Positions 12,001-53,615 are shown, counted from the stretch's first letter. The stretch is DNA of 64,000 bases from Eledone cirrhosa (GCA_964016885.1 OZ024742.1:349432001-349496000); one strand, 5' to 3'. Program-made: numbers and translations. The notes: generated by a model from the letters alone, not told the origin.

Positions 12001-15000
12001 CATCGCAGTACCCTGTCTAAAACTCTATAACTCCGATATCATCGCAGTACCCTGTCTAAAACTCTATAACTCTGATATCATCGCAGTACCTGTCTACAAC
12101 TCCATAACTCTGATATCATCGCAGTACCCTGTCTAAAACTCTATAACTCTGATATCATCGCAGTACCTGTCTAAAACTCTATAACTCTGATATCATTGCA
12201 GTACCCTGTCTAAAACTCTCTAACTCTGATATCATCGCAGTACCCTGTCTAAAACTCTATAATTCTGATATCATTGCAGTACCCTGTCTAAAACTCTATA
12301 ACTCTGATAACATCGCAAAACCCTGTCTAAATCTCTATAACTCTGATATCATCGCAGTACCCTGTCTAGAACTCTATAACTCTGATATCATCGCAGAACC
12401 CTGTCTAAAACTCTCTAACTCTGATATCATTGCAGTACCCTGTCTAAAATTCTATAACTCTGATATCATCGCAGAACCCTGTCTAAAACTCTATAACTCT
12501 GATATCATAGCAGAACCCTGTCTAAAATTCTATAACTCTGATATCATCGCAGTACCCTGTCTAAAACTCTATAACTCTGATATCATTGCAGTACCCAGTC
12601 TAAAATTCTATAACTCTGATATCATCGCAGTACCCTATCTAAAACTATATATCTCTGACATCATTGCGGTACCCTGTCTAAAACTCTATAACTCTGATAT
12701 CATCGCAGTACCCTGTTTAAATCTCTATAACTCTGATATCATCGCAGTACCCTGTCTAGAACTCTATAACTCTGGTATCATCGCAGTACCCTGTCTAAAA
12801 CTCTATAACTCTGATATCATCGCAGTACCTGTCTACAACTCTATAACTCTGATATCATCGCAGTACCCTATCTAGAACTCTATAACACTGATATCATCGC
12901 AGTACCCTGTCTAAAACTCTATAACTCTGATATCATCGCAGTACCCTGTCTAGAACTCTATAACTCTGATATCATTGCAGTACCCTGTCTAAAATTCTAT
13001 AACTCTGATATCATCGCAGTACCCTGTCTAAAACTCCATAACTCTGATATCATCGCAGTACCCTGTCTAAAACTCTATATCTCTGATATAATTGCAGTAC
13101 CCTGTCTAAAACTCTATAACTCTGATATCATCGCAGTACCTGTCTAAAACTCTATAACTCTGATATCATCGCAGTACCCTGTCTAAAACTCTATAACTCC
13201 GATATCATCGCAGAACCCTGTCTAAAACTCTATAACTCTGATATCATTGCAGTACCCTGTCTAAAATTCTATAACTCTGATATCATCGCAGTACCCTGTC
13301 TAGAACTCTATATCTCTGATATCATCGCAGTACCCTGTCTAAAACTCTATAACTCTGATATCATCGCAGTACCCTGTCTAAAACTCTATAACTCCGATAT
13401 CATCCCAGAACCCTGTCTAAAACTCTATAACTCTGATATCATTGCATTACCCTGTCTAAAACTCTATAACTCTGATATCATCGCAGTACCCTGTCTAAAA
13501 CTCTATAACTCCGATATCATCGCAGAACCCTGTCTAAAACTCTATAACTCTGATATCATTGCAGTACCCTGTCTAAAACTCTCTAACTCTGATATCATCG
13601 CAGTACCCTGTCTAAAACTCTATAACTCTGATATCATTGCAGTACCCTGTCTAAAACTCTATAACTCTTATAACATCGCAAAATCCTGTCTAAATCTCTA
13701 TAACTCTGATATCATCGCAGTAGCCTGTCTAGAACTCTATAACTCTGATATCATCGCAGTACCCTGTCTAGAACTCTATAACTCTGATATCATCGCAGAA
13801 CCCTGTCTAAAACTCTCTAACTCTGATATCATTGCAGTACCCTGTCTAAAATTCTATAACTCTGATATCATCGCAGAACCCTGTCTAAAACTCTCTAACT
13901 CTGATATCATTGCAGAACCCTGTCTAAAATTCTATAACTCTGATATCATCGCAGTACCCTGTCTAAAACTCTATAACTCTGATATCATTGCAGTACCCTT
14001 TTTAAAATTCTATAACTCTGATATCATCGCAGTACCCTGTCTAAAACTATATAACTCTGATATCATTGCGGTACCCTGTCTAAAACTCTATAACTCTGAT
14101 ATCATCACAGTACCCTGTCTAAAACTCTATAACTCCGATATCATCGCAGTACCCTGTCTAAAACTCTATAACTCTGATATCATCGCAGTACCTGTCTACA
14201 ACTCCATAACTCTGATATCATCGCAGTACCCTATCTAAAACTCTATAACTCTGATATCATCGCAGTACCTGTCTAAAACTCTATAACTCTGATATCATTG
14301 CAGTACCCTGTCTAAAACTCTCTAACTCTGATATCATCGCAGTACCCTGTCTAAAACTCTATAATTCTGATATCATTGCAGTACCCTGTCTAAAACTCTA
14401 TAACTCTGATAACATCGCAAAACCCTGTCTAAATCTCTATAACTCTGATATCATCGCAGTAGCCTGTCTAGAACTCTATAACTCTGATATCATCGCAGTA
14501 CCCTGTCTAGAACTCTATAACTCTGATATCATCGCAGAACCCTGTCTAAAACTCTCTAACTCTGATATCATTGCAGTACCCTGTCTAAAATTCTATAACT
14601 CTGATATCATCGCAGAACCCTGTCTAAAACTCTCTAACTCTGATATCATTGCAGAACCCTGTCTAAAATTCTATAACTCTGATATCATCGCAGTACCCTG
14701 TCTAAAACTCTATAACTCTGATATCATTGCAGTACCCTTTTTAAAATTCTATAACTCTGATATCATCGCAGTACCCTGTCTAAAACTATATAACTCTGAT
14801 ATCATTGCGGTACCCTGTCTAAAACTCTATAACTTTGATATCATCGCAGTACCCTGTTTAAATCTCTATAACTCTGATATCATCGCAGTACCCTGTCTAG
14901 AACTCTATATCTCTGATATCATCGCAGTACCCTGTCTAAAACTCTATAACTCCGATATCATCGCAGTACCCTGTCTAAAACTCTATAACTCTGATATCAT

Positions 15001-15820
15001 CGCAGTACCTGTCTACAACTCTATAACTCTCATATCATCGCAGTACCCTGTCTAAAACTCTATAACTCTGATATCATCGCAGTACCTGTCTAAAACTCTA
15101 TAACTCTGATATCATTGCAGTACCCTGTCTAAAACTCTCTAACTCTGATATCATCGCAGTACTCTGTCTAAAACTCTATAACTCTGATATCATTGCAGTA
15201 CCCTGTCTAAAACTCTATAACTCTGATAACATCGCAAAACCCTGTCTAAATATCTATAACTCTGATATCATCGCAGTAGCCTGTCTAAACTCTATAACTC
15301 TGATATCATCGCAGTACCCTGTCTAAAATCCTATAACTCTGATATCATCGCAGAACCCTGTCTAAAACTCTCTAACTCTGATATCATTGCAGAACCCTTT
15401 CTAAAATTCTATAACTCTGATATCATCGCAGTACCCTGTCTAAAACTATATAACTCTGATATCATTGCGGTACCCTATCTAAAACTCTATAACTCTGATA
15501 TCATCGCAGTACCCTGTTTAAATCTCTATAACTCTGATATCATCGCAGTACCCTGTCTAGAACTCTATAACTCTGTTATCATCGCAGTACCCTGTCTAAA
15601 ACTCTATAACTCCGATATCATCGCAGTACCCTGTCTTAAACTCTATAACTCTGATATCATCGCAGTACCTGTCTACAACTCTATATCTCTGATATCATCG
15701 CAGTACCCTGTCTAAAACTCTATAACTCTGATATCATCGCAGTACCTGTCTAAAACTCTATAACTCTGATATCATCGCAGTACCTGTCTAAAACTCTATA
15801 ACTCCGATATCATCGCAGTA
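1..15820. repeat. 39-bp satellite array (consensus TCTGATATCATCGCAGTACCCTGTCTAAAACTCTATAAC) with higher-order structure
   Basis: Unit restarts at 1, 40 and 79, with some 38-bp variants. The array runs off the left edge and ends abruptly at ~15820. Confidence 0.98.
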
Positions 15821-18575: not shown

Positions 18576-18632
<57 letters not shown>

Positions 18633-18685
18633 GTAAGTATGTATGTATACGTACATACATATATGTATACAGACGTACAGTAGCA

Positions 18686-18750
<65 letters not shown>

Positions 18751-19204
18751 GTACACATACATATATGTACGCACCAGTTTAGCGGACGCTTATTATAGCG
18801 CCCGCTTTGTTCGTTTGTAAACAAACTGAACAGCCTGAATTTATGCCGCACGGTGTCCAGGCAACCACGTCAACTTTTTGTTCAACACTGACACAGGAAC
18901 GATGTACTAGTTTCAAGCTTGTTAGCTATCATCAGCACCGTATACCCATCTGCCAGATAGTTGAACGTTCGAAAGTATATACTTTCCTTATGAAAATTAA
19001 CGGCTGAGCAGCCTAATTTGCATATCGAGTGAGTTAAATCGGTCAGGCGCACCGAAAACGATGAGTTGTAATAAAATGAAACTGTACGTCTGTATACATA
19101 TATGTATGTACGTATACATACATACTTACATTTAAATAAGTGCCGTACTAATTGTGAGAAATGAAATTTCGTTTTCATTTTATTACAACTATATATATAT
19201 ATAT

Positions 19205-19600
19205 ATTAGAATTGGTGCTCTGAAATAGCGATGTATATTTGAATGTATATATAGTATACTTGGCAATACACTGTATGCTTAATTAAAAGCATTTTGAAGA
19301 CCTGACGCTATTGTTTAAAGTAGTGACTATGTCACTTACTTCTTTTTTCAAGAAACAAAGGGAGATAAGCTGACAGATCTCTGTTTCATACTCTTGGTAT
19401 TCCTCAGACAAACAAGGGGAGTGCTAAGCTCTGAGGAATACCAAGAGTATGAAACAGAGATCTGACAGCTTATCTCCCTTTGTTTCTTGAAAAAAAGAAG
19501 TAAGTGACATAGTTACTACTTTAAAACAATAGCGTAAGGTCTTCAAAATGCTTTTAATTAAGCATACAGTGTATTACCAAATACACTATATATACATTCA
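19205..19600. mobile_element. (TA)n-flanked foldback element with hammerhead motif (arms ~19240-19408 / 19430-19600)
   Basis: ~170-bp inverted arms with a few substitutions; TA runs at both ends. Confidence 0.9.
19425..19472 (+). ncRNA. Type I hammerhead ribozyme motif (cleavage triplet mutated to GAC in this arm)
   Basis: TAAGCT-CTGAGGA-ATAC caaga GTAT-GAAA-CAGAGATCTG-AC-AGCTTA. The opposite arm retains GTC, and stem I extends (AAACAAGGGGAG / CTCCCTTTGTTT) past a bulge. Confidence 0.8.
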
Positions 19601-20135
19601 TATATATATATATATATATAAGGTAAGTTATTCCGGGTTGAATCGGAAGTAACCACAGTAAGTAAGGTACTCAATACATAGCAGAGTATTAAAGTTTTAA
19701 TATAGATGAGATTCTACAGGACTAGAACTGTTTCATTCTTTAGAAATCATCGGGAATCTATATATTTAAATATATCTAAACGTACCAAGGATCTCACACA
19801 TTTTCCTTTCTTGAAGACAGATATTTATATCTGTCTTCAGTCGTCAGAATGAATAACATGGAATGTTTATTAAATATTAGATTTGAAAACAAAATTTAGA
19901 ACATTTGAAAGTGAGGCTGAAATCAAATAACGGGTAAAAAATTGGAGGGAAAAAATATATAAATAAATATCTAGAACATAAACATACACACACACAAATA
20001 CACGCTTATACGTAATAGTACTTAGACATATACATTCTCACATAAGTGTATTTGCGTCTACATGGAAATACGAACAGACACATATAAACGTGTGATCATT
20101 TGCTCACACACGCGCACACACAGGCGCACACTCAC

Positions 20136-22994: not shown

Positions 22995-24135
<1,141 letters not shown>

Positions 24136-25967: not shown

Positions 25968-26006
<39 letters not shown>

Positions 26007-26051
26007 AAGTAAAATAAAAAGTCAAATGTTTAAAATTTAGCTTCGTTTATT

Positions 26052-26106
26052 ACTGCTATATATATTTCGGTGACAGCCATTTTTGGCTGTGACCTCTTCA
26101 GGCAGT
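26052..26106 (-). ncRNA. Type I hammerhead ribozyme
   Basis: Exact reverse complement of the motif at 27703-27757. Confidence 0.88.
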
Positions 26107-27702
26107 CCGAATTAGTATGGTATAGACAAGTACATATGTTGTTGAGGTGTATAATTTTGTCAATACTCTGATATGCCCAGTTCCTGGTTGGGTTGTTATT
26201 TCACTGAGGAACTGGAATCATATGAATTCAAACAAACGAATTTCAGTGTCAAAGGGCCTCTTCTCTTCTCATTGGTCAGTTGTTAGAACATTCCTCATTC
26301 AAAAGTCTATAGAAATTCGTTCTGAGGCAAGCCAATCTGCAGTTGTGGTTCTTGTTATTGTTAGGTACATCTGACCTCAATTCTTGTGTTGGTAGTGTTG
26401 TTATTGTTGGAGTTAGCTTAAAAAATTGATAAAGTGGTAGAAGGAACAAGGTGGTAAAGGAACAAAATATCAAAAAAATGTCAAACTTCCCATTGGTCAG
26501 TTTTGAGAGCATTCCTCAGTCAGAAGTCTATAGAAATTCTTTCTGGGGTGAGGCTCCCTGTAGTGTTTGTGTTTGCTATTGTTAAGTACATTTGACCTCT
26601 ACCATTATTTCGTTAGTGTTGTTGGTGTTGTGGTCAGCTTATGTCTTGCTGCTGCTGACAATTTAGAAGTATCTGTGTGTGTTTTTTAATTTACTTGATT
26701 TCTGATTTTCAATTTTCAATTTTAAATCTTGATTTCGCTTTATTAATTTGTTATTTGTTTTCTGTTCTCTTCACTGTATCACCTTATATTTATTTTTAAG
26801 TTGAGATTGATTATAACACAAACACATTTTGTTTGATTATCTTATTCTTTTATTATTTTAACATCTTTTGCCTCATACCAATCTATCCAACATATTTCTG
26901 ACCTTGAGATTGGTTATAGCACACACACACTTTATCCTACTTTATTTGAATCTTCATTTTATTTTTCACTTCTCCATATTCATTTTCATTACTTTTTCAC
27001 CAATTTTTCATTTATTCTTTATTCTCTATTTATTATTTATTTTCTGTTTTCTTCATTTATTGCCTTATATTTCTTCATATACATGGAAGAACCCCCCCCC
27101 CCAGGAGATGGTGGCAGGAGGGATGAAAAAACACACACAGATACTTCTAAATTGTCAGCAGCAGCAAGACATAAGCTGACCACAACACCAACAACACTAA
27201 CGAAATAATGGTAGAGGTCAAATGTACTTAACAATAGCAAACGCAAACACTACAGCGAGCCTCAACCCAGAAAGAATTTCTATAGACTTCTGACTGAGGA
27301 ATGCTCTCAAAACTGACCATGGGAAGTTTGACATTTTTTTGTTATTTTGTTCCTTTACCACCTTGTTCCTTTCTACCACTTTATCAATTTTTAAGCTAAC
27401 TCCAACAATAACAACACTACCAACACAAGAATTGAGGTCAGATGTACCTAACAATAACAAGAACCACAACTACAGATTGGCTTGCCTCAGAACGAATTTC
27501 TATAGACTTTTGAATGAGGAATGTTCTAACAACTGACCAATGAGAAGAGAAGAGGCCCTTTGACACTGAAATTCGTTTGTTTGAATTCATATGATTCCAG
27601 TTCCTCAGTGAAATAACCCAACCAGGAACTGGGCATATCAGAGTATTGACAAAATTATACACCTCAACAACATATGTACTTGTCTATACCACACTAATTC
27701 GG

Positions 27703-27757
27703 ACTGCCTGAAGAGGTCACAGCCAAAAATGGCTGTCACCGAAATATATATAGCAGT
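27703..27757 (+). ncRNA. Type I hammerhead ribozyme
   Basis: ACTGC-CTGAAGA-GGTCACAGCC aaaaat GGCTGTCACC-GAAA-TATATA-TA-GCAGT, then AATAAA. All core residues are canonical. Confidence 0.88.
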
Positions 27758-28020
27758 AATAAACGAAGCTAAATTTTAAACATTTGACTTTTTATTTTAC
27801 TTTATTTTACATTACTCCGGAGTAATGTAAAATAAAGTAAACCAACCTGCGCACTTCGTCGAGTGTTCCAGCCTGCATACTGAGGTGTTGGTATACAACC
27901 AACATATACTCAATATATATATATATATATATATTGAAAAATGTGTGAGGTCCTTGGTACAGTTAGGTATATTTCAAAATAAGGAAACGAATGACTTGTC
28001 ATTCTTTTCCTTTTTTTCAA

Positions 28021-31046: not shown

Positions 31047-32178
<1,132 letters not shown>

Positions 32179-32420
32179 ATATATATATATATATATAAAC
32201 AATTAAGTTAAAAATGTACATCCACATATGTATACTGAAATACTAGTATGCATATGAATACACACACGTGTACATATGTAGATGTACCGAGTTTTCACTG
32301 GTCACTTTACTGTGAGTGTCCAGCTATTCTGTATGTAGACACACAGACAAACCGGTTCTTAGAGTCATACTGGTTTTTGAGGAAACACCTTTCCTCTATT
32401 CTCCAGAAAGCCAGACAAGG

Positions 32421-32465
32421 AATATTGGACTAGTTTCGATGTTGTTACATCTCATCAGCAATATT
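32421..32465 (-). ncRNA. Minimal type I hammerhead ribozyme (array unit 1)
   Basis: Minus strand: AATATTG-CTGATGA-GATGT aaca ACATC-GAAA-CTAG-TC-CAATATT; GUC cleavage triplet; palindromic stem III ACTAGT. Confidence 0.92.
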
Positions 32466-32886
32466 TACCTATCTTCCGGCTTCTCTAGAGAATCGTGAAA
32501 GCACATATCGTTATATGCTTTTTCTATGAAAATTAGTAGTGGGCAGACCAATTTGCATAGAGCGTGAGTACGTACCGGTTCAACGGAGACGATAAAAACA
32601 AATAACGAAACGAAATTAAATTTCGTTTCGTTTGTAACTCACTTTTGTATGACTGACGCTTAAACAATTAAGTTAAAAAATGTACATCCACATATGTATA
32701 CTGAAATACTAGTATGCATATGAATACACACACGTGTACATATGTAGATGTACCGAGTTTTCACTGGTCACTTTACTGTGAGTGTCCAGCTATTCTGTAT
32801 GTAGACACACAGACAAACCGGTTCTTAGAGTCATACTGGTTTTTGAGGAAACACCTTTCCTCTATTCTCCAGAAAGCCAGACAAGG

Positions 32887-32931
32887 AATATTGGACTAGT
32901 TTCGATGTTGTTACATCTCATCAGCAATATT
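32887..32931 (-). ncRNA. Minimal type I hammerhead ribozyme (array unit 2)
   Basis: Identical to 32421-32465. Confidence 0.92.
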
Positions 32932-33701
32932 TACCTATCTTCCGGCTTCTCTAGAGAATCGTGAAAGCACATATCGTTATATGCTTTTTCTATGAAAATT
33001 AGTAGTGGGCAGACCAATTTGCATAGAGCGTGAGTACGTACCGGTTCAACGGAGACGATAAAAACAAATAACGAAACGAAATTAAATTTCGTTTCGTTTG
33101 TAACTCACTTTTGTATGACTGACGCTTAAACAATTAAGTTAAAAATGTACATCCACATATGTATACTGAAATACTAGTATGCATATGAATACACACACGT
33201 GTACATATGTAGATGTACCGAGTTTTCACTGGTCACTTTACTGTGAGTGTCCAGCTATTCTGTATGTAGACACACAGACAAACCGGTTCTTAGAGTCATA
33301 CTGGTTTTTGAGGAAACACCTTTCCTCTATTCTCCAGAAAGCCAGACAAGGAATATTGGACTAGTTTCGATGTTGGTACGTGAGTACGTACCGGTTCAAC
33401 GGAGACGATAAAAACAAATAACGAAACGAAATTAAATTTCGTTTCGTTTGTAACTCACTTTTGTATGACTGACGCTTAAACAATTAAGTTAAAAATGTAC
33501 ATCCACATATGTATACTGAAATACTAGTATGCATATGAATACACACACGTGTACATATGTAGATGTACCGAGTTTTCACTGGTCACTTTACTGTGAGTGT
33601 CCAGCTATTCTGTATGTAGACACACAGACAAACCGGTTCTTAGAGTCATACTGGTTTTTGAGGAAACACCTTTCCTCTATTCTCCAGAAAGCCAGACAAG
33701 G

Positions 33702-33746
33702 AATATTGGACTAGTTTCGATGTTGTTACATCTCATCAGCAATATT
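33702..33746 (-). ncRNA. Minimal type I hammerhead ribozyme (array unit 4)
   Basis: Identical to 32421-32465. Confidence 0.92.
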
Positions 33747-34516
33747 TACCTATCTTCCGGCTTCTCTAGAGAATCGTGAAAGCACATATCGTTATATGCT
33801 TTTTCTATGAAAATTAGTAGTGGGCAGACCAATTTGCATAGAGCGTGAGTACGTACCGGTTCAACGGAGACGATAAAAACAAATAACGAAACGAAATTAA
33901 ATTTCGTTTCGTTTGTAACTCACTTTTGTATGACTGACGCTTAAACAATTAAGTTAAAAATGTACATCCACATATGTATACTGAAATACTAGTATGCATA
34001 TGAATACACACACGTGTACATATGTAGATGTACCGAGTTTTCACTGGTCACTTTACTGTGAGTGTCCAGCTATTCTGTATGTAGACACACAGACAAACCG
34101 GTTCTTAGAGTCATACTGGTTTTTGAGGAAACACCTTTCCTCTATTCTCCAGAAAGCCAGACAAGGAATATTGGACTAGTTTCGATGTTGTTACGTGAGT
34201 ACGTACCGGTTCAACGGAGACGATAAAAACAAATAACGAAACGAAATTAAATTTCGTTTCGTTTGTAACTCACTTTTGTATGACTGACGCTTAAACAATT
34301 AAGTTAAAAATGTACATCCACATATGTATACTGAAATACTAGTATGCATATGAATACACACACGTGTACATATGTAGATGTACCGAGTTTTCACTGGTCA
34401 CTTTACTGTGAGTGTCCAGCTATTCTGTATGTAGACACACAGACAAACCGGTTCTTAGAGTCATACTGGTTTTTGAGGAAACACCTTTCCTCTATTCTCC
34501 AGAAAGCCAGACAAGG

Positions 34517-34561
34517 AATATTGGACTAGTTTCGATGTTGTTACATCTCATCAGCAATATT
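34517..34561 (-). ncRNA. Minimal type I hammerhead ribozyme (array unit 6)
   Basis: Identical to 32421-32465. Confidence 0.92.
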
Positions 34562-34981
34562 TACCTATCTTCCGGCTTCTCTAGAGAATCGTGAAAGCAC
34601 ATATCGTTATATGCTTTTTCTATGAAAATTAGTAGTGGGCAGACCAATTTGCATAGAGCGTGAGTACGTACCGGTTCAACGGAGACGATAAAAACAAATA
34701 ACGAAACGAAATTAAATTTCGTTTCGTTTGTAACTCACTTTTGTATGACTGACGCTTAAACAATTAAGTTAAAAATGTACATCCACATATGTATACTGAA
34801 ATACTAGTATGCATATGAATACACACACGTGTACATATGTAGATGTACCGAGTTTTCACTGGTCACTTTACTGTGAGTGTCCAGCTATTCTGTATGTAGA
34901 CACACAGACAAACCGGTTCTTAGAGTCATACTGGTTTTTGAGGAAACACCTTTCCTCTATTCACCAGAAAGCCAGACAAGG

Positions 34982-35026
34982 AATATTGGACTAGTTTCGA
35001 TGTTGTTACATCTCATCAGCAATATT
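34982..35026 (-). ncRNA. Minimal type I hammerhead ribozyme (array unit 7)
   Basis: Identical to 32421-32465. Confidence 0.92.
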
Positions 35027-35499
35027 TACCTATCTTCCGGCTTCTCTAGAGAATCGTGAAAGCACATATCGTTATATGCTTTTTCTATGAAAATTAGTAG
35101 TGGGCAGACCAATTTGCATAGAGCGTGAGTACGTACCGGTTCAACGGAGACGATAAAAACAAATAACGAAACGAAATTAAATTTCGTTTCGTTTTTAAAT
35201 TTCGTTTCGTTTCCTTGTCTGGCTTTCTGGAGAATAGAGGAAAGGTGTTTCCTCAAAAACCAGTATGACTCTAAGAACCGGTTTGTCTGTGTGTCTACAT
35301 ACAGAATAGCTGGACACTCACAGTAAAGTGACCAGTGAAAACTCGGTACATCTACATATGTACACGTGTGTGTATTCATATGCATACTAGTATTTCAGTA
35401 TACATATGTGGATGTACATTTTTAACTTAATTGTTTAAGCGTCAGTCATACAAAAGTGAGTTACAAACGAAACGAAATTTAATTTCGTTTCGTTATTTG

Positions 35500-35553
<54 letters not shown>

Positions 35554-37482: not shown

Positions 37483-38297
37483 AAAGTATGTATCTTTACA
37501 TGTAATTAATACACATAGGGACACAAGTATAGTCCGACCATATGCCAGTGTGGTTCAATGGTAAGTTAATAAATTAACAAGCCAGAACATATAAATTCAA
37601 GGGAGTGTAAACACAGAAAATATCTTAAAAAATAAAAAATAATTAAATTTAAAAAAATTCACTGTACTTACTATATGTGCCCTTACCGCGGTTTCAGATC
37701 CCAAACAAATAGATAATCCAAGCGGATTTCCATTGAGAAAGAAATCATCGTCAGAAGGCTTTTCTCTCTCGGAGAATATAAAATTCCCGAGTTAAAATTG
37801 CAAACTGGCGCCACACCAAACTGCCACAGAATGAGACCGAATGAATGATGAAACAGTTATGGTATAGTACCGTATGCAAAGGCAAAAAGCACGGTAATTA
37901 CATGTAGGGATACATACTTTTATTATTATTCTCCCCAACGGTAGAGAAACCTTTGGTCGTTTGAATAGCTGCTATTTTTCGTAACATTAGATTGACCTGT
38001 CCACCGTGCTTTTTGCCTTTGCACACGGTATTATACCACAACTGTTTCATCATTCATTCGCTCTCATTCTGGAGCAGTTTGGTGTGGCGCCAGTTTGTAA
38101 TTTTAACTCGGGTATTTTATATTCTCCGAGAGAGAAAAGCCTTCTGACGATGATCTCTTTCTCAATAGAAATCCGCTTGGATTATCTATTTGTTTGTGAT
38201 CTGAAACCGCGGTAATGGCACATATAGTAAGTACAGTGAAATTTTTGGAATTTAATTATTTATTATTTTTAAAGATATTTTCTGTGTTTACACTCCC

Positions 38298-38302
<5 letters not shown>
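37476..38302. mobile_element. (TA)n-flanked foldback element (arms ~37595-37895 / 38003-38302) with nested second inversion
   Basis: ~300-bp diverged arms; 37896-37926 is the reverse complement of 37477-37507. Confidence 0.9.
37679..37759 (-). ncRNA. Type I hammerhead motif; mirror copy at 38139-38219 (+)
   Basis: Minus strand: GCCTT-CTGACGA-tGATTTC...GGGATCt-GAAA-CCGCGG-TA-AGGGC; palindromic stem III ACCGCGGT. Confidence 0.75.
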
Positions 38303-38341
<39 letters not shown>

Positions 38342-38358
38342 ATAATAATAACATTTTA

Positions 38359-38393
<35 letters not shown>

Positions 38394-38397
<4 letters not shown>

Positions 38398-38589
38398 AAC
38401 GAGTAGGACCCAGACGGCTGAACTCAAGCTGTTTCGACGGCTAATTCTGGGTCCAGAATTAGCCGTCGAAACGGCTTGAGCTCAGCCGTCGGGATCCTAC
38501 TCGTTCCTATTACCCTCTCTACTACCCTAAGTATTGAGTACTTTGGTGCGTTATGGTCCACCTGGTTCCTTACCACATTTCCTTCGTTA
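38394..38589 (+). mobile_element. ~190-bp hairpin-ended (TA)n element, copy 4
   Basis: Full hairpin plus family tail; nearly the reverse complement of 39297-39492. Confidence 0.88.
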
Positions 38590-38599
38590 TATATATATA

Positions 38600-38642
<43 letters not shown>

Positions 38643-38715
38643 GGGAGTGTAAACACAGAAAATATCTTTAAAAATAATAAATAATTAAATTCCAAAAATT
38701 TCACTGTATTGTTAT

Positions 38716-38769
<54 letters not shown>

Positions 38770-38788
38770 TTAATAATCTGTTATTTTA

Positions 38789-38838
<50 letters not shown>

Positions 38839-38911
38839 ATAACAATACAGTGAAATTTTTGGAATTTAATTATTTATTATTTTTAAAGATATTTTCTGTG
38901 TTTACACTCCC

Positions 38912-38967
<56 letters not shown>

Positions 38968-38986
38968 ATAATAATCTGTTATTTTA

Positions 38987-39067
<81 letters not shown>

Positions 39068-39296
39068 AATAAAAAACAAGGACGATTGGCTACTCTTTCA
39101 TTACGTTTATTGGTTGGTAACGCGCGTTTCGCCACTGATCAGCTCAAAGTTCGATCTGTATCGATCTATCCCGATTCTGTAATCATCCGCGGCACGTCAG
39201 ACCCCTTACAATGGTAATGGAAATATGAAACTTTACAGTAACTCCAAGTTACACTCCCTGGATATATATATATATATATATAAATATATATATATA

Positions 39297-39492
39297 TAAC
39301 GAAGGAAATGTGGTAAGGAACCAGGTGGACCATAACGCACCAAGGCACTCAATACTTAGGGTAGTAGAGTGGGTAATAGGAACGAGTAGGATCCCGACGG
39401 CTGAGCTCAAGCCGTTTCGACGGCTAATTCTGGACCCAGAATTAGCCGTCGAAACGGCTTGAGCTCAGCCGTCTGGGTCCTACTCGTTCCTA
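39297..39492 (-). mobile_element. ~190-bp hairpin-ended (TA)n element, copy 5
   Basis: Full hairpin plus family tail; TA on both sides. Confidence 0.88.
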
Positions 39493-40770
39493 TATATATA
39501 TATCAGAAATATGTTGAATTTCCTTAATTATGTATTTCTGAAAACACTATGCACATCTCAGTGACCAGGTTGCGTAAGAAGCCGGTGATATCTTCAGGTG
39601 TAAATTGCGTAATATATGTATACTAACGGAATGATGGTAAGCCCATTTCAAGAGGCTTTAACGAAAAAAAGCAAAGAAAAAACAGAGAAAAAAGTGCTTT
39701 CGACCCAGAGACGATTGAAGCAATATGTTGTTATAACGTCCCGTCGTCTCTGAGTGGATCTTTAACAGATCCTTCTTGATAGTTTGATAAGCGGGTAGGG
39801 GGGAAGTATAGTTTATTGGGCGAATCACTACTAATGCGCTGGGATAATTGCTGGCCTTGTGTCCAAAGTAGAAACAATTATAACAACCTTCGGACAGCAG
39901 GCCAGAGAAGAGGGTGGGGTGAAAAATATCGTGTTACAGAGAATGGTAATCTGTCTGGGTCAAGCTAAGGTCTATACACTCACAGAAAGTATACAACAGA
40001 CGGGGTAAATTTAGCAATACATCAAGCAGAGAAAATTCAGAGCTTAAAAGAAATTACAGGCTTTAATTGTTTAGAAGTTAAAGTTAGGGTTAATTTTAGG
40101 AATTGAAAATTAAAATTGAATGTTTAAAAATGTTTAAAATTTAATTAAATATGTAGAGTCCACACAGTTGGTCAGTAAATCACCAATTAGAAAGACCAGT
40201 TACGTTAATGATTCTAATTATAGAGTTGTGTAAATCAGGGACCTAATAAATAATTAACATAATGTTAGTTAAGATAAGTTAAGTCACTATCCACTTGGGA
40301 TTCCTCTCGTAGTTCAAAGTTATATTCCTCTGGCATATACTATATAAGTAGGATGGTATGGTGGTTAACAACAACTGAAAATAGTGACCTCTCCAACGCA
40401 CCCAGGGTCCAAAGGCCCACCGACCGTTCCGAGTATTACGGTATACCGTAGAAAAGGGAAATTTAATTTATTTCCAAGAGCTCAAGGAGGTGGACAGACA
40501 CAGGCTTCCCGGAGACAGCCGGTGTCGTAATATATGCCATATATTCCTAGTTATCCATACTAGTGAAGTCGAGATATCAAAACTGAAGCAACGCTGGATT
40601 TATTTGAGGCAGGAAAACCTACACAATCCATAGGTTCCATGCGCCGGTCAGTCTTAGATACATATTGGATATAATCCACATAGGCAAGGTACAGGCATTC
40701 AAACAAGGCTATCACTATATATGAAGACACTATCGTATATTATACAGCAAATGTATCCCAAATAGAGACA

Positions 40771-43910: not shown

Positions 43911-45635
43911 ATGTCGAAAACAACGAAGAAAAAAAATTTGAAAAATTTCATGACAATACTAATAACACAAACAAAGACACAACAAACAAAAAAAATAACA
44001 GTTGAAAATAACATAATATCAGAAAACAAAGCAGACGACAAGATTTCATTTGCACAGAAAACAAAGAAATCTTTGACTTATATAGCGGAAAACATTTCAG
44101 ATGTGGTACGAAGGATCACGGACGCAAAACAATACATAAGTGAAGGTGAGAATGGTATTTTATTGGTAAAAATGCCTCAAGAATTCACGAAAGACATTGA
44201 AAGCCGAACGGTCAAGTTTCGGACCATCAACAACAGTACAAAAAAACCTGAACAGCCTTCTCAAGCAGATATCAAAACAGTACTCGCAGAAGTACTGAAT
44301 GAAACAACTTTCATAAGAAAAGACAGACTGTATGGAAGCCTAGCAATTATCATGAAGAACGAATCGGCGGCAAAAAAATGTGCTTTGTCACCGATTCGTT
44401 CGAAAAATTTCACCTTTTATCCATCTTATATGGGGAAAAAAACTCAACGCATATGGCTGGATGCAATGATGCCAGATGTGGACTACTGCTGGCTCATAGC
44501 TGGCTTCATCGATCCAGTGAATGACAACGTGATTTCCATTGGGAAAACCACAGGCAATGCGTTCAGTGGAACAGGTATAGAGCTGGTAGTACAAATGAAG
44601 CCTGAACGCATCGCACAAATACCCGACATAATCCTATTAGAGGACCACGGGTATATAAACATTAGCGTGGAGGGGAGAAGGCCGTCCTGCCATATCTGTG
44701 CAGGCAGAGGGCACCTGAAGGCCGCTTGTCCCCAACTCAACAAAAAGAAAACCCTGCTACCAACACCAGCTCCACCACCACCACCACAACAGATAAACAA
44801 ACAACAAAACTCAGTCCCACCCAACCCGTCCCTCAGTAACACCACAACACCACCACAACACAAACAGTCACAACACATTACCCCAAAACAAAATACAGGC
44901 CCACCCAACCTCTCACTCAATAAAACAACACAACCACCGCAGACACAACACACAACACAGTCTAACATAGTGACATCCATCTCCCCCACAAAGAAAACCA
45001 ACACGGAAACATTACCAGCAAACATACCTCTTCCCTCCAACACTGAAGATAACCCAACGAATTCGGAGGAAGAAACGGAGTCCTTCAGACAGATTAAAAG
45101 GAAAAAAAGAAAACATGTGCAAAACACACAAGGACAAACAACCCCCACCCAAATCGCAACACAATCTAACAAAACAGAAAACACCCCTCCAGCAACAAAC
45201 AAAACCAAACCTGCCCCTCCCCTCTTCGAAACACTCACACCATCGGAAAAAAAGACATTACACTATACTTACATCAACAGAAACAATAATAAATTAAATG
45301 AACTCATATACAATAATCCTTCGGTACAAACCGAAGGTGTAAACTTTGTTTCATCAGAAAACCACCCACATTTAAAACTAATAAAAATCCCAATGAACCT
45401 CTACCAAAAACTAAAAAAGGATTTTAAGGAGGACGTAGGACCACCCTCTGTCAAACCCATAAACCGCGTCCTACTAAAAAGCTTTCCCCCTCCCCTTCCC
45501 CTCCCCAACACAACTCCAAACACCCCAACCCCACCACACACCGACGACTCCACACCACCACAAGACACCCCTTCACCCAACACCCCCGACCCCATGGAAG
45601 TCGTGCAACCCGAACCCCGGGAAGCGGAAAGGTAG
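43911..45635 (+). CDS. LINE ORF1 protein with CCHC zinc knuckle and Pro/Thr/Gln-rich tail
   Basis: 574 aa; CHICAGRGHLKAAC = CX2CX4HX4C; ends 33 bp upstream of ORF2. The true start is uncertain. Confidence 0.88.
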   Translation: MSKTTKKKNLKNFMTILITQTKTQQTKKITVENNIISENKADDKISFAQKTKKSLTYIAENISDVVRRITDAKQYISEGENGILLVKMPQEFTKDIESRTVKFRTINNSTKKPEQPSQADIKTVLAEVLNETTFIRKDRLYGSLAIIMKNESAAKKCALSPIRSKNFTFYPSYMGKKTQRIWLDAMMPDVDYCWLIAGFIDPVNDNVISIGKTTGNAFSGTGIELVVQMKPERIAQIPDIILLEDHGYINISVEGRRPSCHICAGRGHLKAACPQLNKKKTLLPTPAPPPPPQQINKQQNSVPPNPSLSNTTTPPQHKQSQHITPKQNTGPPNLSLNKTTQPPQTQHTTQSNIVTSISPTKKTNTETLPANIPLPSNTEDNPTNSEEETESFRQIKRKKRKHVQNTQGQTTPTQIATQSNKTENTPPATNKTKPAPPLFETLTPSEKKTLHYTYINRNNNKLNELIYNNPSVQTEGVNFVSSENHPHLKLIKIPMNLYQKLKKDFKEDVGPPSVKPINRVLLKSFPPPLPLPNTTPNTPTPPHTDDSTPPQDTPSPNTPDPMEVVQPEPREAER

Positions 45636-45668
45636 GTCTCTACACTCTCCTTTGGCTCTGCCGCCCAC

Positions 45669-48600
45669 ATGGATGTGTTAAGAGTAGGATGTTTGAATGC
45701 ACGTGGCCTGGGCTCAACTTGGAAGCAAGCAAAGCTTCTAAATGACCTCAGGTCATGTAGTATAAATGTAATGGTTATCTGTGAGACTCGAATCAGCGTC
45801 ATGCGGCAGCTGGCCCCCACCTTCGATGACTTTGAGGTGCATGCATCTCTCTGTCAACCTGGAGGTGGGGGTGGGGTTGTCGTGCTGCTGCAAAAACACC
45901 TGGGTCTTGCCGTACAGGTTGTGCACTCGGACCCGGAGGGTCGTTTGTTGGTGCTAGACGTTGGCAGTAGTGAAAGTGCGGCCTTGAGACTGGTCGCCGT
46001 CTACTCCCCTTTCGGAGCTGAACGGCCCGACTTCTTCCAGCGTTTGGAGACTTTTCTGGGAACGTCGCGTTCCCTGCTTCTAGCGGGGGATTGGAATGAC
46101 ATCCTGGATGCACGTTGGGACTATGCAGGAGCATGTCCTAATAGAGGGGGGTGTAACAGCCTCAAGGGGTTACTCGACCGTTTTAACTTGGTCGATAGAT
46201 ATCGACTAGATTTTCCAACTGTGCCTACCTGGACTTGGAGAAACCACAGTGGTCAATCTAGATCGTACTTAGATAGATTCTTAGTTAGAAGTAAGGATAG
46301 GGACATATTAAGCTGTCCAGAAATGCGCACGGTTGGCTACACGGATCACAAATTAGTGACCTGCGTGGTCAATCTCGAGAAAACACATAGACAGGGTCCC
46401 GGTTACTGGAAACTTAATTTGTCTTTACCGGCAAAAGAGACTTACAGAAACCGGATTAGCAGATTAGTTAAGGAGAGGTTGACGGGTGCAATCGTCAACA
46501 ACCGATGGTGGGCATCTCTCAAAAGAGAGATTAGAACAGAATCAATAAGTTATAGCAAGATGTTAGCTGCCAATAGGAATAGAAACGAGAAAGAATTAAC
46601 AGGTAAATTAGAAGAGGCAATCAAGAGCGAAGATGTGGCCAGAGTGCTGGCATCGAGGACGGCCTTGAACCAGTTTTTCGATGCAAAGCATGAAGGCTGC
46701 GTCATTCGAAGTAAAATACGTGCTCTAGGTAATGAGGGGGCCAAAGCCGTTGGATGGGCCCGCGTGACAGAAGCTAAAAGTGGAAATCGATCCACCATCC
46801 GGTCGTTGCAAGACGAAGATGGACGAGTGATCCGGGAGCCTAAGCAGATGTGCGAGGCCTTTCAAAAGCACTTTGCCCGATTGTTCGGGGGAGGCGAGGG
46901 TCCGGGCCGGGGCGTGGATTTCGGTCCATACCTCGACGGCCTGCCGCGTCTCTCGAACAAAGAGGCAGAGTCCTGCGAGGGACCAATCTCGGCTGATGAG
47001 ATCGGAGATGCGCTGAGCCAATGCAGCAGACGCAAATCTCCAGGTCTCGATGGTATACCTTACGAACTTTATTTAGCAATGCCGGTCTTCTTCTCCGAAC
47101 TCCTCGAAGCGGTCTACTGCAATTGGCAGCAGAACGGGAGAATTCCTTGTTCTGTAGCCAAGGGCGTAGTCACGCTGGTGAGGAAGGACGAGAACAAGGG
47201 GGATAGTATAAATAATTTTCGGCCCATAACCCTGCTAAACACAGAGTTAAAGATTTTGGCCAAGGTGTTAGCAAAGAGGTTGGCGCTTGTCGTGGGTGGC
47301 CTGGTGGGAGATGCGCAGACATGTGCTATCCCATCCAGGTCCATTCACGATAACCTCCACCTCATGCGATACATCATAGAGAGGGTTGGCAACAAACCCG
47401 GCTTCGGTGGGGCCCTGATCAACTTGGATCAGTCTAAGGCCTTCGATAGGGTCGACCATGGTTACCTGGATGCGGTGCTAGCGGCGGCTGGGTTCGGTCC
47501 TGTTTTCAGAGGCTGGATCACTGCCCTACATAGCAACCACATCTGTTCTAGGATCAAGGTGAACGGCTACCTTTCGAAGCCGTTCGAAATCACACGATCC
47601 ATTCGACAGGGGTGCCCTCTCTCCTCCCTTCTGTACGTATTGACTCTCGAGCCTTTACTGAGGAAGTTGGAGTTGTTGCAGGGTATCCCCCTGGAACCAG
47701 GATTGAGCAAAGCGGTGTCGGCCTACGCCGATGACGTAACAGTAATGGTATCAACCGACTCGGAGATCGAGGCGATCGGTACCTTACTGGAGGAGTACGA
47801 AAGGTTGTCAGGAGCGAAACTGAACCGGGAAAAATCCATCGGGCTGCAACTCGGAACGTGGAGAGGCAGACCGATGCCTCCTGACGGTGTCGTCGGACAC
47901 TGGACGGAGGGCCCGGTAAAGTTGCTTGGGGTCTGGTTTGGACCGGACCTCCAGGTGGAAAAGAACTGGAACGAGGTTACGAACAAGGTGTTTGCACTAA
48001 CCCAGAAATGGGCCAAGTGTAAGCTGTCCCTAAAAGGCCGGGCGGAGGTGGCGAACATTTACATAGCGTCCGTCACTTACTACCGCCTGACTCTCGTGCC
48101 TTGCCCTAAGGAAACACTCACCACCATGGAACGCATGCTCTTCCAATTTCTTTGGAAGAAGCGTCCTCCTATGGTGAGAAGATCCATCTGCTGCCAACAA
48201 CCTTCGAAAGGAGGGCTGGGGATGCCGTGGTTGATGATGCGTAGGCACGCATTAAGGCTACGGCACCTACAGGTATTCCTCACTGGTCAACCGGTGTGGG
48301 CTCCGTTCGTGAAACGAGCCTTTCCGAGACTCGTCTCACTCACCGAGCTACAGTCCTGGGTCAAGCAAAGATCCGGAAAACTGGGAGACTGGCACACTGA
48401 GTGTGCTCAGGCGCTCAGGGCTCTCTGGCAAGCGGGCCGGGCCATCGGTGGAGAATCCACCTCATCATTCTATAGAGGGCTGGTGGCTAGCAGGGGCGAT
48501 GACACCCTTGGAGAGTCGCTGGACATGGAGGAAGACGAACTGGCCAGCCTGTTCGGTAGGACTTTCGGCCCAGGACCAATGGACAACTTCCAGAAGTCAC

Positions 48601-49106
48601 TGGCCTGGCAGTGCTACCGAGGGGCTCTACCCGTTCGAGAGAGGCTCTACAGACACGGGCGCCCGGGCAGGGATCCCTCAAAAAAGATTTGCCCTAGATG
48701 CGTGCGTCACGAAGAAACCGTGGCGCACGCATTGGTGCAATGTCCTGGCGTGGCTGATCTGTGGGGCTACGCCGAACAACTGCTGTCGCGGGTGGCGCCG
48801 ATTAAATTGACCGCCGAGTCCGTGATGACAATCAAACCGCCTCCCCTCTTCACAAAGGAAGCAAAGGCGGTTTTTCTGTGCGTAATAGCCATGTTGAAAG
48901 AGGTTGTTTGGTGGACACGATTGAAAGGTCTGAGGTCAGGCAACTTCCTCTCTGGCCATAGTCTGGTCTACGTCTTCCGATATCACTTCGGAAGAAGGAT
49001 AAGAATGGAGAGAGAGGTGCTTGGCCACAGGCAGTTTTATGAAAGGTGGGTGATAGTGGCGAGAATGGCTCGTGTAAATGGGCCTTCTCTGTATACCATC
49101 CTGTAG
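45669..49106 (+). CDS. LINE ORF2: APE endonuclease, reverse transcriptase and C-terminal zinc finger
   Basis: 1145 aa; LNARGL, CET, AGDWN, SYLDRF, TDH (APE); GYWKLN, KSPGLDG, FRPITLLN, DQSKAFDRV, RQGCPLS, YADD (RT); CPRC..EETVAHALVQC. Confidence 0.97.
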   Translation: MDVLRVGCLNARGLGSTWKQAKLLNDLRSCSINVMVICETRISVMRQLAPTFDDFEVHASLCQPGGGGGVVVLLQKHLGLAVQVVHSDPEGRLLVLDVGSSESAALRLVAVYSPFGAERPDFFQRLETFLGTSRSLLLAGDWNDILDARWDYAGACPNRGGCNSLKGLLDRFNLVDRYRLDFPTVPTWTWRNHSGQSRSYLDRFLVRSKDRDILSCPEMRTVGYTDHKLVTCVVNLEKTHRQGPGYWKLNLSLPAKETYRNRISRLVKERLTGAIVNNRWWASLKREIRTESISYSKMLAANRNRNEKELTGKLEEAIKSEDVARVLASRTALNQFFDAKHEGCVIRSKIRALGNEGAKAVGWARVTEAKSGNRSTIRSLQDEDGRVIREPKQMCEAFQKHFARLFGGGEGPGRGVDFGPYLDGLPRLSNKEAESCEGPISADEIGDALSQCSRRKSPGLDGIPYELYLAMPVFFSELLEAVYCNWQQNGRIPCSVAKGVVTLVRKDENKGDSINNFRPITLLNTELKILAKVLAKRLALVVGGLVGDAQTCAIPSRSIHDNLHLMRYIIERVGNKPGFGGALINLDQSKAFDRVDHGYLDAVLAAAGFGPVFRGWITALHSNHICSRIKVNGYLSKPFEITRSIRQGCPLSSLLYVLTLEPLLRKLELLQGIPLEPGLSKAVSAYADDVTVMVSTDSEIEAIGTLLEEYERLSGAKLNREKSIGLQLGTWRGRPMPPDGVVGHWTEGPVKLLGVWFGPDLQVEKNWNEVTNKVFALTQKWAKCKLSLKGRAEVANIYIASVTYYRLTLVPCPKETLTTMERMLFQFLWKKRPPMVRRSICCQQPSKGGLGMPWLMMRRHALRLRHLQVFLTGQPVWAPFVKRAFPRLVSLTELQSWVKQRSGKLGDWHTECAQALRALWQAGRAIGGESTSSFYRGLVASRGDDTLGESLDMEEDELASLFGRTFGPGPMDNFQKSLAWQCYRGALPVRERLYRHGRPGRDPSKKICPRCVRHEETVAHALVQCPGVADLWGYAEQLLSRVAPIKLTAESVMTIKPPPLFTKEAKAVFLCVIAMLKEVVWWTRLKGLRSGNFLSGHSLVYVFRYHFGRRIRMEREVLGHRQFYERWVIVARMARVNGPSLYTIL

Positions 49107-51497: not shown

Positions 51498-51668
51498 CTA
51501 GACTGGGGTAGGGAGCCTCATTACCCCTTCCCCGTGGGGTGCAGCTGGGATATACCACTTAGACTGGGGTGGGGAGTCTACCCCTCACTACTCCTTCCCT
51601 CGTGGGATGCAGCTGGGATATGTTACCTAGAAAGGGGTGGGGAGTCTACCCCTCACTACCCCCTCCCT
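51498..51668. repeat. ~60-68-bp GC-rich tandem repeat, about 2.5 copies
   Basis: TAGACTGGGGT.GGGAG...CGTGGG.TGCAGCTGGGATAT is repeated. Confidence 0.7.
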
Positions 51669-51765
51669 TTCTTTTTCTATTGAAGTTTTTCTTTCTTTTT
51701 CTTTTTTATTGCAATCATTATATAATTTAATTAGAATTTGTTGAAATATGGTGAGATAGATAGAG

Positions 51766-53615
51766 TCCCCGAGGGCGCAAAAGAAGGGGACAAATACAAG
51801 GGGGGAATTTACACAAAAAGGCGAATAAAGAAAACAAATAAATATAAAATTAACAATAAAGCCCTTAATAGGGAGGAGGCGTTTTGGGGGTCGCACACAC
51901 CCCCGAATAAAGTGTGCAACCCTTCTCCTCAGGAGCACAGAGAGAGGGTGCTCCCTTGTTCCTTCATCTTTTCCATCTACAGGCTGATGTAGAGAGAAGG
52001 CCCATTCACACGGGCCATTCTCGCCACTTTCACCCACCTTTCATAAAAACGACTGGGGTGGAGCACCTCTCTCTCCATCCTGATCCTTCTTCCGAAATGA
52101 TATCGGAAGAAACGGACCAGTTGTTGGCCAGAGAGAAAGGTGTCTGACCTCAGTCCTTTCAGACGCGTCCACCACACGACCTCTTTCACCATGGCTATTA
52201 CGTACAGAAACACCGCCTCTCCTTCATTTTTGAAGTGGAGAGGCGGCTTAATCGTTACAATGGCTTCGGAGGTCAACCGGATCGGTCCCACCCGTGACAG
52301 CAGTCGTTCGACATAGCCCCACAGATTGGCTACGCCCGAGCAGTGTACCAATGCGTGTGCAACGGTTTCTTCGTCGCACACGCATCTGGGACAGATCTTT
52401 TTGGCGGGGTCCCTACCCGGGCGCCCGTGTCTGTAAAGCTTTTCTCGAACGGGTAGAGCCCCTCGGTATCACTGCCAGGATAGGGACTTCTGGAAGTTGT
52501 CCATATGTCCCGGGCTGAATGTCCTACCGAACAGGCTGGCCAGTTCGTCTTCCTCCATGTCTAGGGCTTCTCCGAGGGCGTCGTCGCACCTGCTGCGTAC
52601 CAGCCCTCTATAGAATGTCGAGGTGGAGTCTCCACTGATAACCGGGTCCGCTTGCCAGAGGGCCGTGAGCGCCTGGGAACACTCAGTGTGCCAGGCGCCC
52701 AGTTTTCTCGGTCTTTGCTTGACCCAGGATTACAGCTCGGTGAGTGAGACGAGTCTGGAAAAGGTTCGTCTCACAAACGGGGCCCACACCGGTTGACCGG
52801 TGAGGAATACGTGGAGGTGTCGTAGCCTTAATGCGTGTTTACGCATCATTAGCCACGGCATCCCCAGCCCTCCTTTCGAAGGGTGTTGACAGCAGATAGA
52901 TCTCCTCACCAAAGGATCCCGCTTCTTCCAAAGGAATTGGAAGAGTGCGCGCTCCATCTTGGCGAGGGTTTCCCTTGGGCAAGGCACGACGGTCAGGCGG
53001 TAGTAGATGACGGACGCTATATAGGTGTTCGCCACCTCCGCCTGACCTTTCAGGGATAGTTTGCAACTGGCCCACTTCTGGGTCAGTGCAAACACCCTGT
53101 TCGTAACCTCACCCCAGTTCTTCTCCACCTGGAGGTCTGGTCCGAACCAGACCCCGAGCAACTTCACCGGGCTCTCCGTCCAGCCATCGGACGGCATCGG
53201 AGCGCATCGGTTTACCCCTCCACGTGCCGAGTTGCAAACCGATCGACTTGTCCCCGTTCAGCTTAGCCTCTGTAAACCTTTAGTACTCTTCCAGTATGGT
53301 GTCGATCACCCCGATTTCGGAGGCCGTCGACACCATTACTGAAATCGGCTCCTCGCAGGACTTCGCCTCCTCGTCCGAAAGACACGGCAGGCCCTCGAGG
53401 TATGGACCGAAGTCCACTTCCCCAACCGGCTCCCCACCCCTTCCGAACAATCGGGCAAAGTGCCTTTGAAAGGCCTCACACATCTGCTTAGGTTCAAGGA
53501 TCGCCCGTCCATCCTGGTCTCGCAAAGACCGGATGGTGGATTTAATTCCACTCTTGGCTTCTGTAACGCGGGCCCAGCTAACAGCTTTGGTCCCCTCGTT
53601 TCCTAGAGCACGTAG
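51766..53615 (-). pseudogene. 5'-truncated, internally deleted copy of the same Tx1-like LINE family
   Basis: ORF fragments parallel ORF2 (PVKLLGVWFGPDLQVEKNW, EETVAHALVHC). The sequence jumps from CEEPIS to VMVST, losing the RT core. The 3' UTR is homologous. Confidence 0.93.

Follow-up and report, generated by a model that had tools for sequence, protein, structure and literature searches.

A putative hammerhead retrozyme array in Eledone cirrhosa DNA with the insertion anatomy of a Penelope-like element

A stretch of 64,000 nucleotides of Eledone cirrhosa DNA (GCA_964016885.1, OZ024742.1:349432001-349496000; hereafter the window) contains a tandem array of short units with hammerhead ribozyme motifs on the minus strand, and the question raised by this locus is what kind of element the unit is and by which machinery it was inserted. 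The explanation that we consider probable is that the unit is a non-coding animal retrozyme of the type without long terminal repeats (non-LTR), mobilised by a protein that an autonomous Penelope-like element (PLE) supplies. A preliminary description of the locus had proposed a retrozyme, and this identity was supported, the motif being a canonical type I hammerhead with a helix III like that of the axolotl ribozyme HHR_Amex1 (PMC7229834). However, that description ended the feature at 35190, whereas the insertion reaches 35506; it overlooked the inverted copy as well as the most informative aspect of the locus, namely its PLE-type insertion anatomy.

Units and ribozyme motif of the array

On the minus strand of the array, the 3' half of the ribozyme (the substrate half) occurred seven times, accompanied by the 5' half (the enzyme half) in five cases, and the predicted cut sites were spaced 466, 465, 350, 465, 350, and 465 bp apart (Table 1). 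The seven near-identical units described earlier were recovered as these seven substrate halves at a spacing of 350-466 bp. The five complete minus-strand hammerheads were confirmed by their motif positions and by a descriptor scan, and the cut of the first unit was again placed between 32428 and 32427.

From the first to the last cut (2561 bp), the units diverged by two substitutions, one 1-base insertion, and a 115-bp deletion that occurred twice. Because the differences were so few, the array can be regarded as young or recently homogenised. With monomer coordinates counted from the ribozyme cut in the RNA sense, the deletion covered positions 330-444; it removed the enzyme strand and most of the closing helix from the two 350-bp units, in which the substrate strand stayed. 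Within the array, an 815-bp higher-order repeat (350 + 465) occurred twice, and complete hammerheads stood in consecutive units at 32421/32887 and at 34517/34982. The GC content of the unit was 37%. No coding frame was found in the six frames of the doubled unit, in which stop-free stretches reached at most about 65 codons, and the array held no separate LTR or internal region.

The ribozyme motif was analyzed with a descriptor that set minimum lengths of 5 bp for helix I and 4 bp for helix II and called for a helix III that was either stemmed or palindromic. A scan of the window matched exactly the five complete hammerheads of the array, while the same descriptor matched none of 5000 dinucleotide shuffles of one unit and gave a mean of 0.0 matches over 30 shuffles of the other 37,386 nt. 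At the Rfam gathering score nothing was found anywhere in the window. Under E-value mode the Hammerhead_HH9 model was matched over its full length with 38.9 bits (gathering score, 52; E = 1.8e-8), and the microRNA and small RNA matches of this mode were rejected as sub-threshold hairpin look-alikes. Scans for the motif pattern gave no match in metagenome contigs, viral contigs, or prokaryote genomes, as expected for an animal repeat.

Helix I consisted of 7 bp, followed by a 2-nt bulge, 3 bp more, and a long extension, and came to about 28 bp overall. Helix II had 5 bp and a 4-nt loop with no extra base before it, and helix III was a single base pair beneath a palindromic tetraloop. Judged by its sequence, the motif is a canonical metazoan type I hammerhead with a full core, of the axolotl HHR_Amex1 class. 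The preliminary description had called it a minimal hammerhead, which was not borne out. In minimal hammerheads (min-HHRs), helix I measures 4-5 bp, helix II measures 7-8 bp and is preceded by an extra base, and helix III has no loop (PMC4209133); this class was rejected on the lengths of helices I and II, the missing extra base, and the tetraloop, and the helix sizes matched the canonical class of the same paper.

Insertion anatomy and the origin of the array

The insertion was made up of the tandem part and an adjacent inverted, 5'-truncated copy (Table 1). Its two outer ends corresponded to RNA 3' ends at monomer positions 232 and 301, both joined to (TA)n, and the inverted copy began 5 nt past the ribozyme cut site. 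An older relative elsewhere in the window repeated this arrangement of tandem and inverted copies, again with a one-sided tail and flanking (TA)n. PLE insertions are described as having (TA)n targets, a tail on one side, and a partial tandem next to which lies an inverted, 5'-truncated copy (PMC8557442). A purified PLE protein nicks AT-rich DNA and extends both strands in vitro, and the same protein initiates at two positions within the RNA, both downstream of the hammerhead, the stretch between these positions being the tail (PMC11167929).

No frame for reverse transcriptase (RT) plus GIY-YIG was found between the units, which join directly. The unit appears to behave as a non-autonomous PLE passenger; it does not qualify as an autonomous PLE because it has no reading frame. 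PLE pseudo-LTRs (pLTRs) are known to bear type I hammerheads and to insert as tandem or inverted structures, and the array could in principle be the 5'-truncated end of an autonomous PLE with no independent non-autonomous family behind it. However, the unit joined itself head-to-tail with no frame between copies, not only in the window but also in contigs of three runs (X1, X4, and X9), its stop-free stretches were as short as given above, and its hammerhead was canonical and not of the minimal class usual in metazoan PLEs. We consider this origin quite improbable. An assembly error as the source of the inversion or of the unit order is less credible still: tandem and inverted PLE insertions are known to trouble assemblies, yet both outer ends recurred in independent contigs, the relative has the identical layout, and the units carry private changes.

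The passenger reading can be put as a series of steps. A parent array would yield a multimeric minus-strand RNA, whose units, according to the folding prediction and to homologues, would form branched rods closed by the long helix I, and this long helix would bring the cut site of each unit into contact with the enzyme strand of the adjacent one. The palindromic helix III would arise only between two units; cutting would need dimers and would probably be slow and partial, and the half sites of deleted units would still be cut by the next unit. As the observed junctions suggest, the endonuclease/RT of a PLE would then nick both (TA)n strands, and reverse transcription would begin inside the RNA at two fixed points, which lie 232 and 301 nt downstream of the cut. 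One cDNA would cross seven uncut sites and produce the 3.0-kb tandem part, the other would reach the cut 5' end of the RNA and produce the 296-bp inverted copy, and an 18-bp slip would join both. By analogy only with other retrozymes, the released monomers may be ligated to circles.

A circle is, however, unnecessary for explaining the insertion at 32196-35506. The preliminary description implied the classical retrozyme cycle, in which rolling-circle reverse transcription of a ligated 465-nt circle makes the tandem array (PMC7229834). Head-to-tail units that start mid-unit are what such a cycle would give, and so is the relative, whose single unit begins within the tail; the monomer fold juxtaposes both cut ends, circular RNAs have been demonstrated for coral, mussel, and axolotl retrozymes, and in run X4 the unit was found as one self-closing contig. 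However, a self-closing contig is equally expected from a perfect DNA tandem, and a single circle has a single sequence, whereas the order 465, 350, 465, 350, 465, 466 includes a repeated deletion and private changes. This unit order argues against a single pass round one 465-nt circle as the origin of the array; such a cycle would have to start from an 815-nt circle and include a template switch, which takes more steps, or be followed by a later rearrangement. Moreover, the stop of the inverted copy lies 5 nt from the cut, where a circle would offer no 5' end. Copying from a circle is thus unlikely, and either the template was a linear read-through multimer of a parent array, or the array grew after insertion.

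Such growth is the core of another explanation, in which a short PLE-type insertion of one or two copies plus the inverted copy was followed by minisatellite growth in place through unequal exchange, the ribozyme being irrelevant to mobility. The 815-bp higher-order repeat is typical of local duplication, the 115-bp deletion was absent among the joints listed for X1, X4, and X9, and the relative has only about one unit. In addition, local amplification of PLE termini has been proposed (bioRxiv 10.64898/2026.07.22.740005), and hammerhead mutants left PLE insertion unaffected in vitro (PMC11167929). What local DNA amplification leaves unexplained is the set of compensatory changes in helices I and II described below, which show selection on the fold. 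We regard this explanation as doubtful; it is partly compatible with a PLE-mobilised retrozyme, since growth may have followed insertion.

Table 1. Positions of the array features, the insertion ends, and the older relative in the window
Feature	Position	Strand	Remarks
Tandem part	32196..35194	-	in RNA sense from monomer 260 (35194), across seven cut sites, to 232 (32196)
Predicted cuts	32428/32427, 32894/32893, 33359/33358, 33709/33708, 34174/34173, 34524/34523, 34989/34988	-	
Complete type I hammerhead	32421..32465	-	cut 32428/32427
Complete type I hammerhead	32887..32931	-	cut 32894/32893; helix I reaches about 32864-32959
Complete type I hammerhead	33702..33746	-	cut 33709/33708
Complete type I hammerhead	34517..34561	-	cut 34524/34523
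Complete type I hammerhead	34982..35026	-	cut 34989/34988
Half hammerhead, substrate strand only	33351..33379	-	at end of 350-bp unit
Half hammerhead, substrate strand only	34166..34194	-	
350-bp unit without monomer 330-444	33359..33708	-	extra substitution at position 448
350-bp unit, identical 115-bp deletion	34174..34523	-	
Inversion junction	35195..35212	+	18-bp direct repeat of 35177-35194; last two bases overlap start of inverted copy
Inverted 5'-truncated copy	35211..35506	+	monomer 6-301, 296/296 bases identical
Tail, 69 nt	35438..35506	+	monomer 233-301; 13-bp hairpin inside; found at right end only
(TA)n target, left	32176..32197		
(TA)n target, right	35505..35550		
Older relative, separate insertion	18628..19190	-	just over one unit; own hammerhead 18897-18943; 110-nt inverted copy

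Folding, selection, and cutting of the RNA

The predicted fold of the whole monomer had a z score of -9.18, and none of 100 shuffles was equally stable. In this fold the 5' end pairs with the monomer's own 3' region, which brings the two cut ends together. For two full units, a double hammerhead had an energy of -204.8 kcal/mol, against -194.5 kcal/mol for two single hammerheads. This advantage of 10.3 kcal/mol and the 1-bp helix III with its palindromic tetraloop supported the dimer dependence that the preliminary description had proposed, and for axolotl HHR_Amex1 itself cleavage is good in dimers and poor in single motifs (PMC7229834). When a half site was folded together with the next full unit as nascent RNA, the unconstrained minimum was the active hammerhead on the half site (-171.6 kcal/mol), and the constrained half-site fold had an identical energy (-171.6 kcal/mol). 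According to this model the next unit should cut the half sites, perhaps better than any other site, so that pieces of 350 nt as well as of 465 and 815 nt would be possible. Of the pieces expected earlier, about 465 and 815 nt long, both remain possible products; a 350-nt piece and an 815-nt piece in a shifted register are also predicted, and the view that 465- and 815-nt pieces are the only products was rejected, since half sites are predicted substrates.

The older relative lies 13 kb from the array and shows 71% mean column identity over the alignment. Its tail is about 56 nt long and (TA)n stands on both sides. The core, loop II, and helix III of its hammerhead are retained, cutting is predicted after A, and a (TA)n expansion is present inside its unit; the descriptor passed over this hammerhead owing to a U-U pair at the base of helix II. 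The main arm of the relative begins inside the tail, and therefore its template exceeded one unit. Between array and relative, both sides had changed in 5 of the 16 pairs and 30 of the 32 cells paired (two sequences only), and pairing was at most 50% in a control in which the partners were slid. In the relative, different letters make up the long helix I extension, which folds too. In about one third of the depth of run X1, U-A replaced the helix II pair A443-U454, and a single X9 contig carried both changes. Among the 13 variants examined, five were unpaired, four still pair with the reference partner, two made up the compensating pair, and two break a predicted pair. Because of the compensatory changes in helices I and II, seen in the relative, X1, and X9, the ribozyme fold is judged from these alignments to be under selection.

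Parts of the unit were present in 20 of the 24 listed runs (16 coded organisms, 15 studies); contigs were aligned in detail for X1, X4, and X9, which represent three organisms and whose run type, DNA or RNA, is not on record. Library carry-over, close kinship, or horizontal transfer may account for the presence across organisms, and all three fit alike. Two same-sample runs (X21 and X22) contained almost none of the unit's words. Among the 24 runs, none that contains the unit was listed as RNA, a finding that speaks neither way on its expression. In X1, 1029 contigs aligned to the unit, and the unit family seems to be young and abundant in at least one organism. Among the rows listed, X1 contigs left the unit and entered (TA)n at 33058 (position 301; 12 contigs), 33127 (position 232; five contigs), and 33132 (position 227; two contigs), and therefore the ends at 232 and 301 are not peculiar to the copy in the window. 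The common letters of X1 differed from those of the window at several places, so X1 represents a related population and not the window locus. The self-closing contig of X4 was 495 nt long and had five differences from the window. X9 held a single version near the common type of X1, with eight letters from the list of X1 variants.

The start of the inverted copy gave a lead on the 5' end of the copied RNA. A large share of the family's copies may be reverse transcripts of linear RNA with a ribozyme-cut 5' end, running from position 301 back to 1, which we propose tentatively, as possible and somewhat short of probable. The inverted copy starts at +6, for which the chance is about 2-3% for one end, calculated post hoc; a start 5 nt past the cut fits a reverse transcriptase running off RNA opened by the ribozyme, and is a hint, not proof, that cut RNA is copied into the genome. 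The summed contig depth of X1, which is no copy number and drops where variants are left out, was about 0.52 million over positions 8-87, 0.57 million over 153-296, and about 0.29 million (median 0.25) over 313-456. Its two largest steps fell in the bins with position 301 and with the cut; the step near the cut interpolated to position 3-4, and a control step landed 2-3 nt from a known end.

Several data weigh against this lead. Only one of the two inverted copies in the window ends at the cut, that of the relative stopping far short of it. Among the rows listed for X1, X4, and X9, there was no loose end and no strand-change joint at the cut site, nor any position at which a large number of molecules ended. 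A third step in X1 depth (-0.27 million at bin 32999) lacks an explanation, and the low-depth stretch of X1 is also its most variable one.

As to published work, PMC11167929 found for a PLE no reads ending at the hammerhead cut. A literature search whose coverage excluded most subscription papers gave no report of retrozyme or PLE copies 5'-truncated at a hammerhead cut. The function of PLE-associated hammerheads has been called unclear (PMC8557442), and if the lead is true, it would be in vivo evidence for such a function: the template of transposition would be a partly cut linear multimer handled by the PLE enzyme, not (only) a circle, and a dimer-dependent ribozyme would define element length in vivo.

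The reading of the array as a retrozyme cut by its own ribozyme and moved by a PLE has to be weighed against the following observations, all of which speak against it. The 69-nt tail exceeds the 30-40 bp printed for PLE tails (PMC8557442). No autonomous PLE partner was found within the window; five inverted elements there, read in six frames, contained no long open frame, and the only long RT frame belongs to a long interspersed nuclear element (LINE) of the apurinic-endonuclease (AP-endonuclease) type. The unconstrained minimum of two units was an inactive local fold at -209.3 kcal/mol, 4.5 kcal/mol below the double hammerhead; because the double hammerhead beats the single ones but loses to this inactive fold, the model suggests cutting that depends on dimers and is probably slow. 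Cleavage in vitro was seen in one of nine Xenopus retrozyme dimers (bioRxiv 10.64898/2026.07.22.740005), and the PLE hammerheads in print are weak or protein-assisted. In the comparison of array and relative, 19 of 500 letter shuffles equalled the covariation observed in these two sequences. Finally, U replaced C at the cut position (32894 in the window) in 81% of the depth of X1. U at the cut position of a hammerhead makes a weaker triplet, and the commonest version in X1 may cut more slowly than that in the window.

Surroundings and known systems

The window consists of animal-type DNA rich in TA and AG microsatellites and flanked by two large satellites, one at 1-15820 (39-bp unit, about 406 copies, strong strand skew) and one at 56522-64000 (61-bp unit, about 123 copies). 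There were 43 tracts of at least six TA within 15821-43500. The window is rich in PLE-like inverted insertions, no PLE frame was seen in it, and the region resembles a hotspot for insertions of the PLE type. Some of the flanking repeats may resemble those of octopus. Both arms of a large inverted element at 25997-27812 contain a hammerhead-like motif (26051-26109, minus; 27700-27758, plus), in which the helix III region is an AT palindrome; (TA)n adjoins the element on the left, and its arms continue through the motif, which sits about 55 nt from the outer end. An inverted pair at 37589-38309 (307 bp, 94%) likewise has a hammerhead-like motif per arm (37713-37762, minus; 38136-38185, plus), with a longer helix III region. 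Nine arms of a small fold-back family (16378, 20228/20271, 25927, 32051, 38413/38465, and 39396/39448) hold only the 3' half of a hammerhead (GAAA, a 5-bp helix III, and a GUC site), truncated within helix II, and end at (TA)n in one of two places separated by about 75 nt; the array occupies the (TA)n at the end of one copy of this family (32010-32176). Further near-perfect inverted insertions beside (TA)n, some of them nested, were located at 23288-24062, 31250-31853, 38383-39503, and about 19230-19640.

The LINE at 43911-49106 has two intact frames, ORF1 of 574 aa and ORF2 of 1156 aa (Exo_endo_phos, RVT_1, zf-RVT); a relative is represented by broken inverted fragments at about 51600-54100. 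As an AP-endonuclease type the LINE was rejected as the mobilising partner of the array; this type is not known to make tails or such inverted ends.

Animal retrozymes are already known, and the array by itself is ordinary. What this locus contributes is a direct tie, at the level of sequence, between a retrozyme and PLE insertion chemistry, consisting of two fixed starts, a tail, an inverted copy, and a TA target. That retrozymes ride on PLEs was proposed earlier in the literature, and animal retrozymes have been claimed, on the basis of phylogeny, to be non-autonomous PLE derivatives (Li, Clavereau & Pollet 2026, bioRxiv 10.64898/2026.07.22.740005). This preprint argues from co-occurrence and pLTR phylogeny, while the link drawn here is junction anatomy; in a word search of its main text, 'tail' and 'cleavage site' occurred 0 times and 'inverted' once, in a reference. 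No retrozyme copies with the full PLE junction anatomy were reported within the limited coverage of our literature search, which did not extend to the supplements of this preprint. The locus bears on whether circles or cut linear RNA serve in retrozyme movement and on the role of PLE-associated hammerheads in vivo, and its natural substrate-only units are a ready test of trans cleavage within a dimer.

In comparison with PLE insertions (PMC8557442, PMC11167929), the array has the same partial tandem with inverted copy, one-end tail, (TA)n or AT-rich target, and two internal RT starts; it differs in having no RT/GIY-YIG frame, a tail of 69 nt, and a canonical hammerhead. With the min-HHRs of metazoan PLEs (PMC4209133) it shares a palindromic helix III region and dimer dependence, the latter predicted for the array, but not the helix sizes, its helix I having 7 bp and a long extension and its helix II 5 bp with no extra base. 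Under the rule of the preprint (bioRxiv 10.64898/2026.07.22.740005), by which two or more successive units carrying complete hammerheads make an 'active retrozyme', the array counts as one; its unit falls within the preprint's range of 51-972 bp, and seven units are typical. Like the animal non-LTR retrozymes of axolotl (Rtz331 with HHR_Amex1) and mussel (350-390-bp repeats), it is built from a short, non-coding, low-GC tandem unit with one canonical type I hammerhead per unit, a 1-bp helix III with a palindromic tetraloop, and a self-paired monomer (PMC7229834). Unlike these retrozymes (150-450 bp), it has a slightly longer unit (465 bp) and shows the full PLE-type anatomy and two units with the substrate half only (PMC7229834). 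On the basis of these likenesses, we place the array as a further member of the known animal non-LTR retrozymes, most likely mobilised by a PLE.

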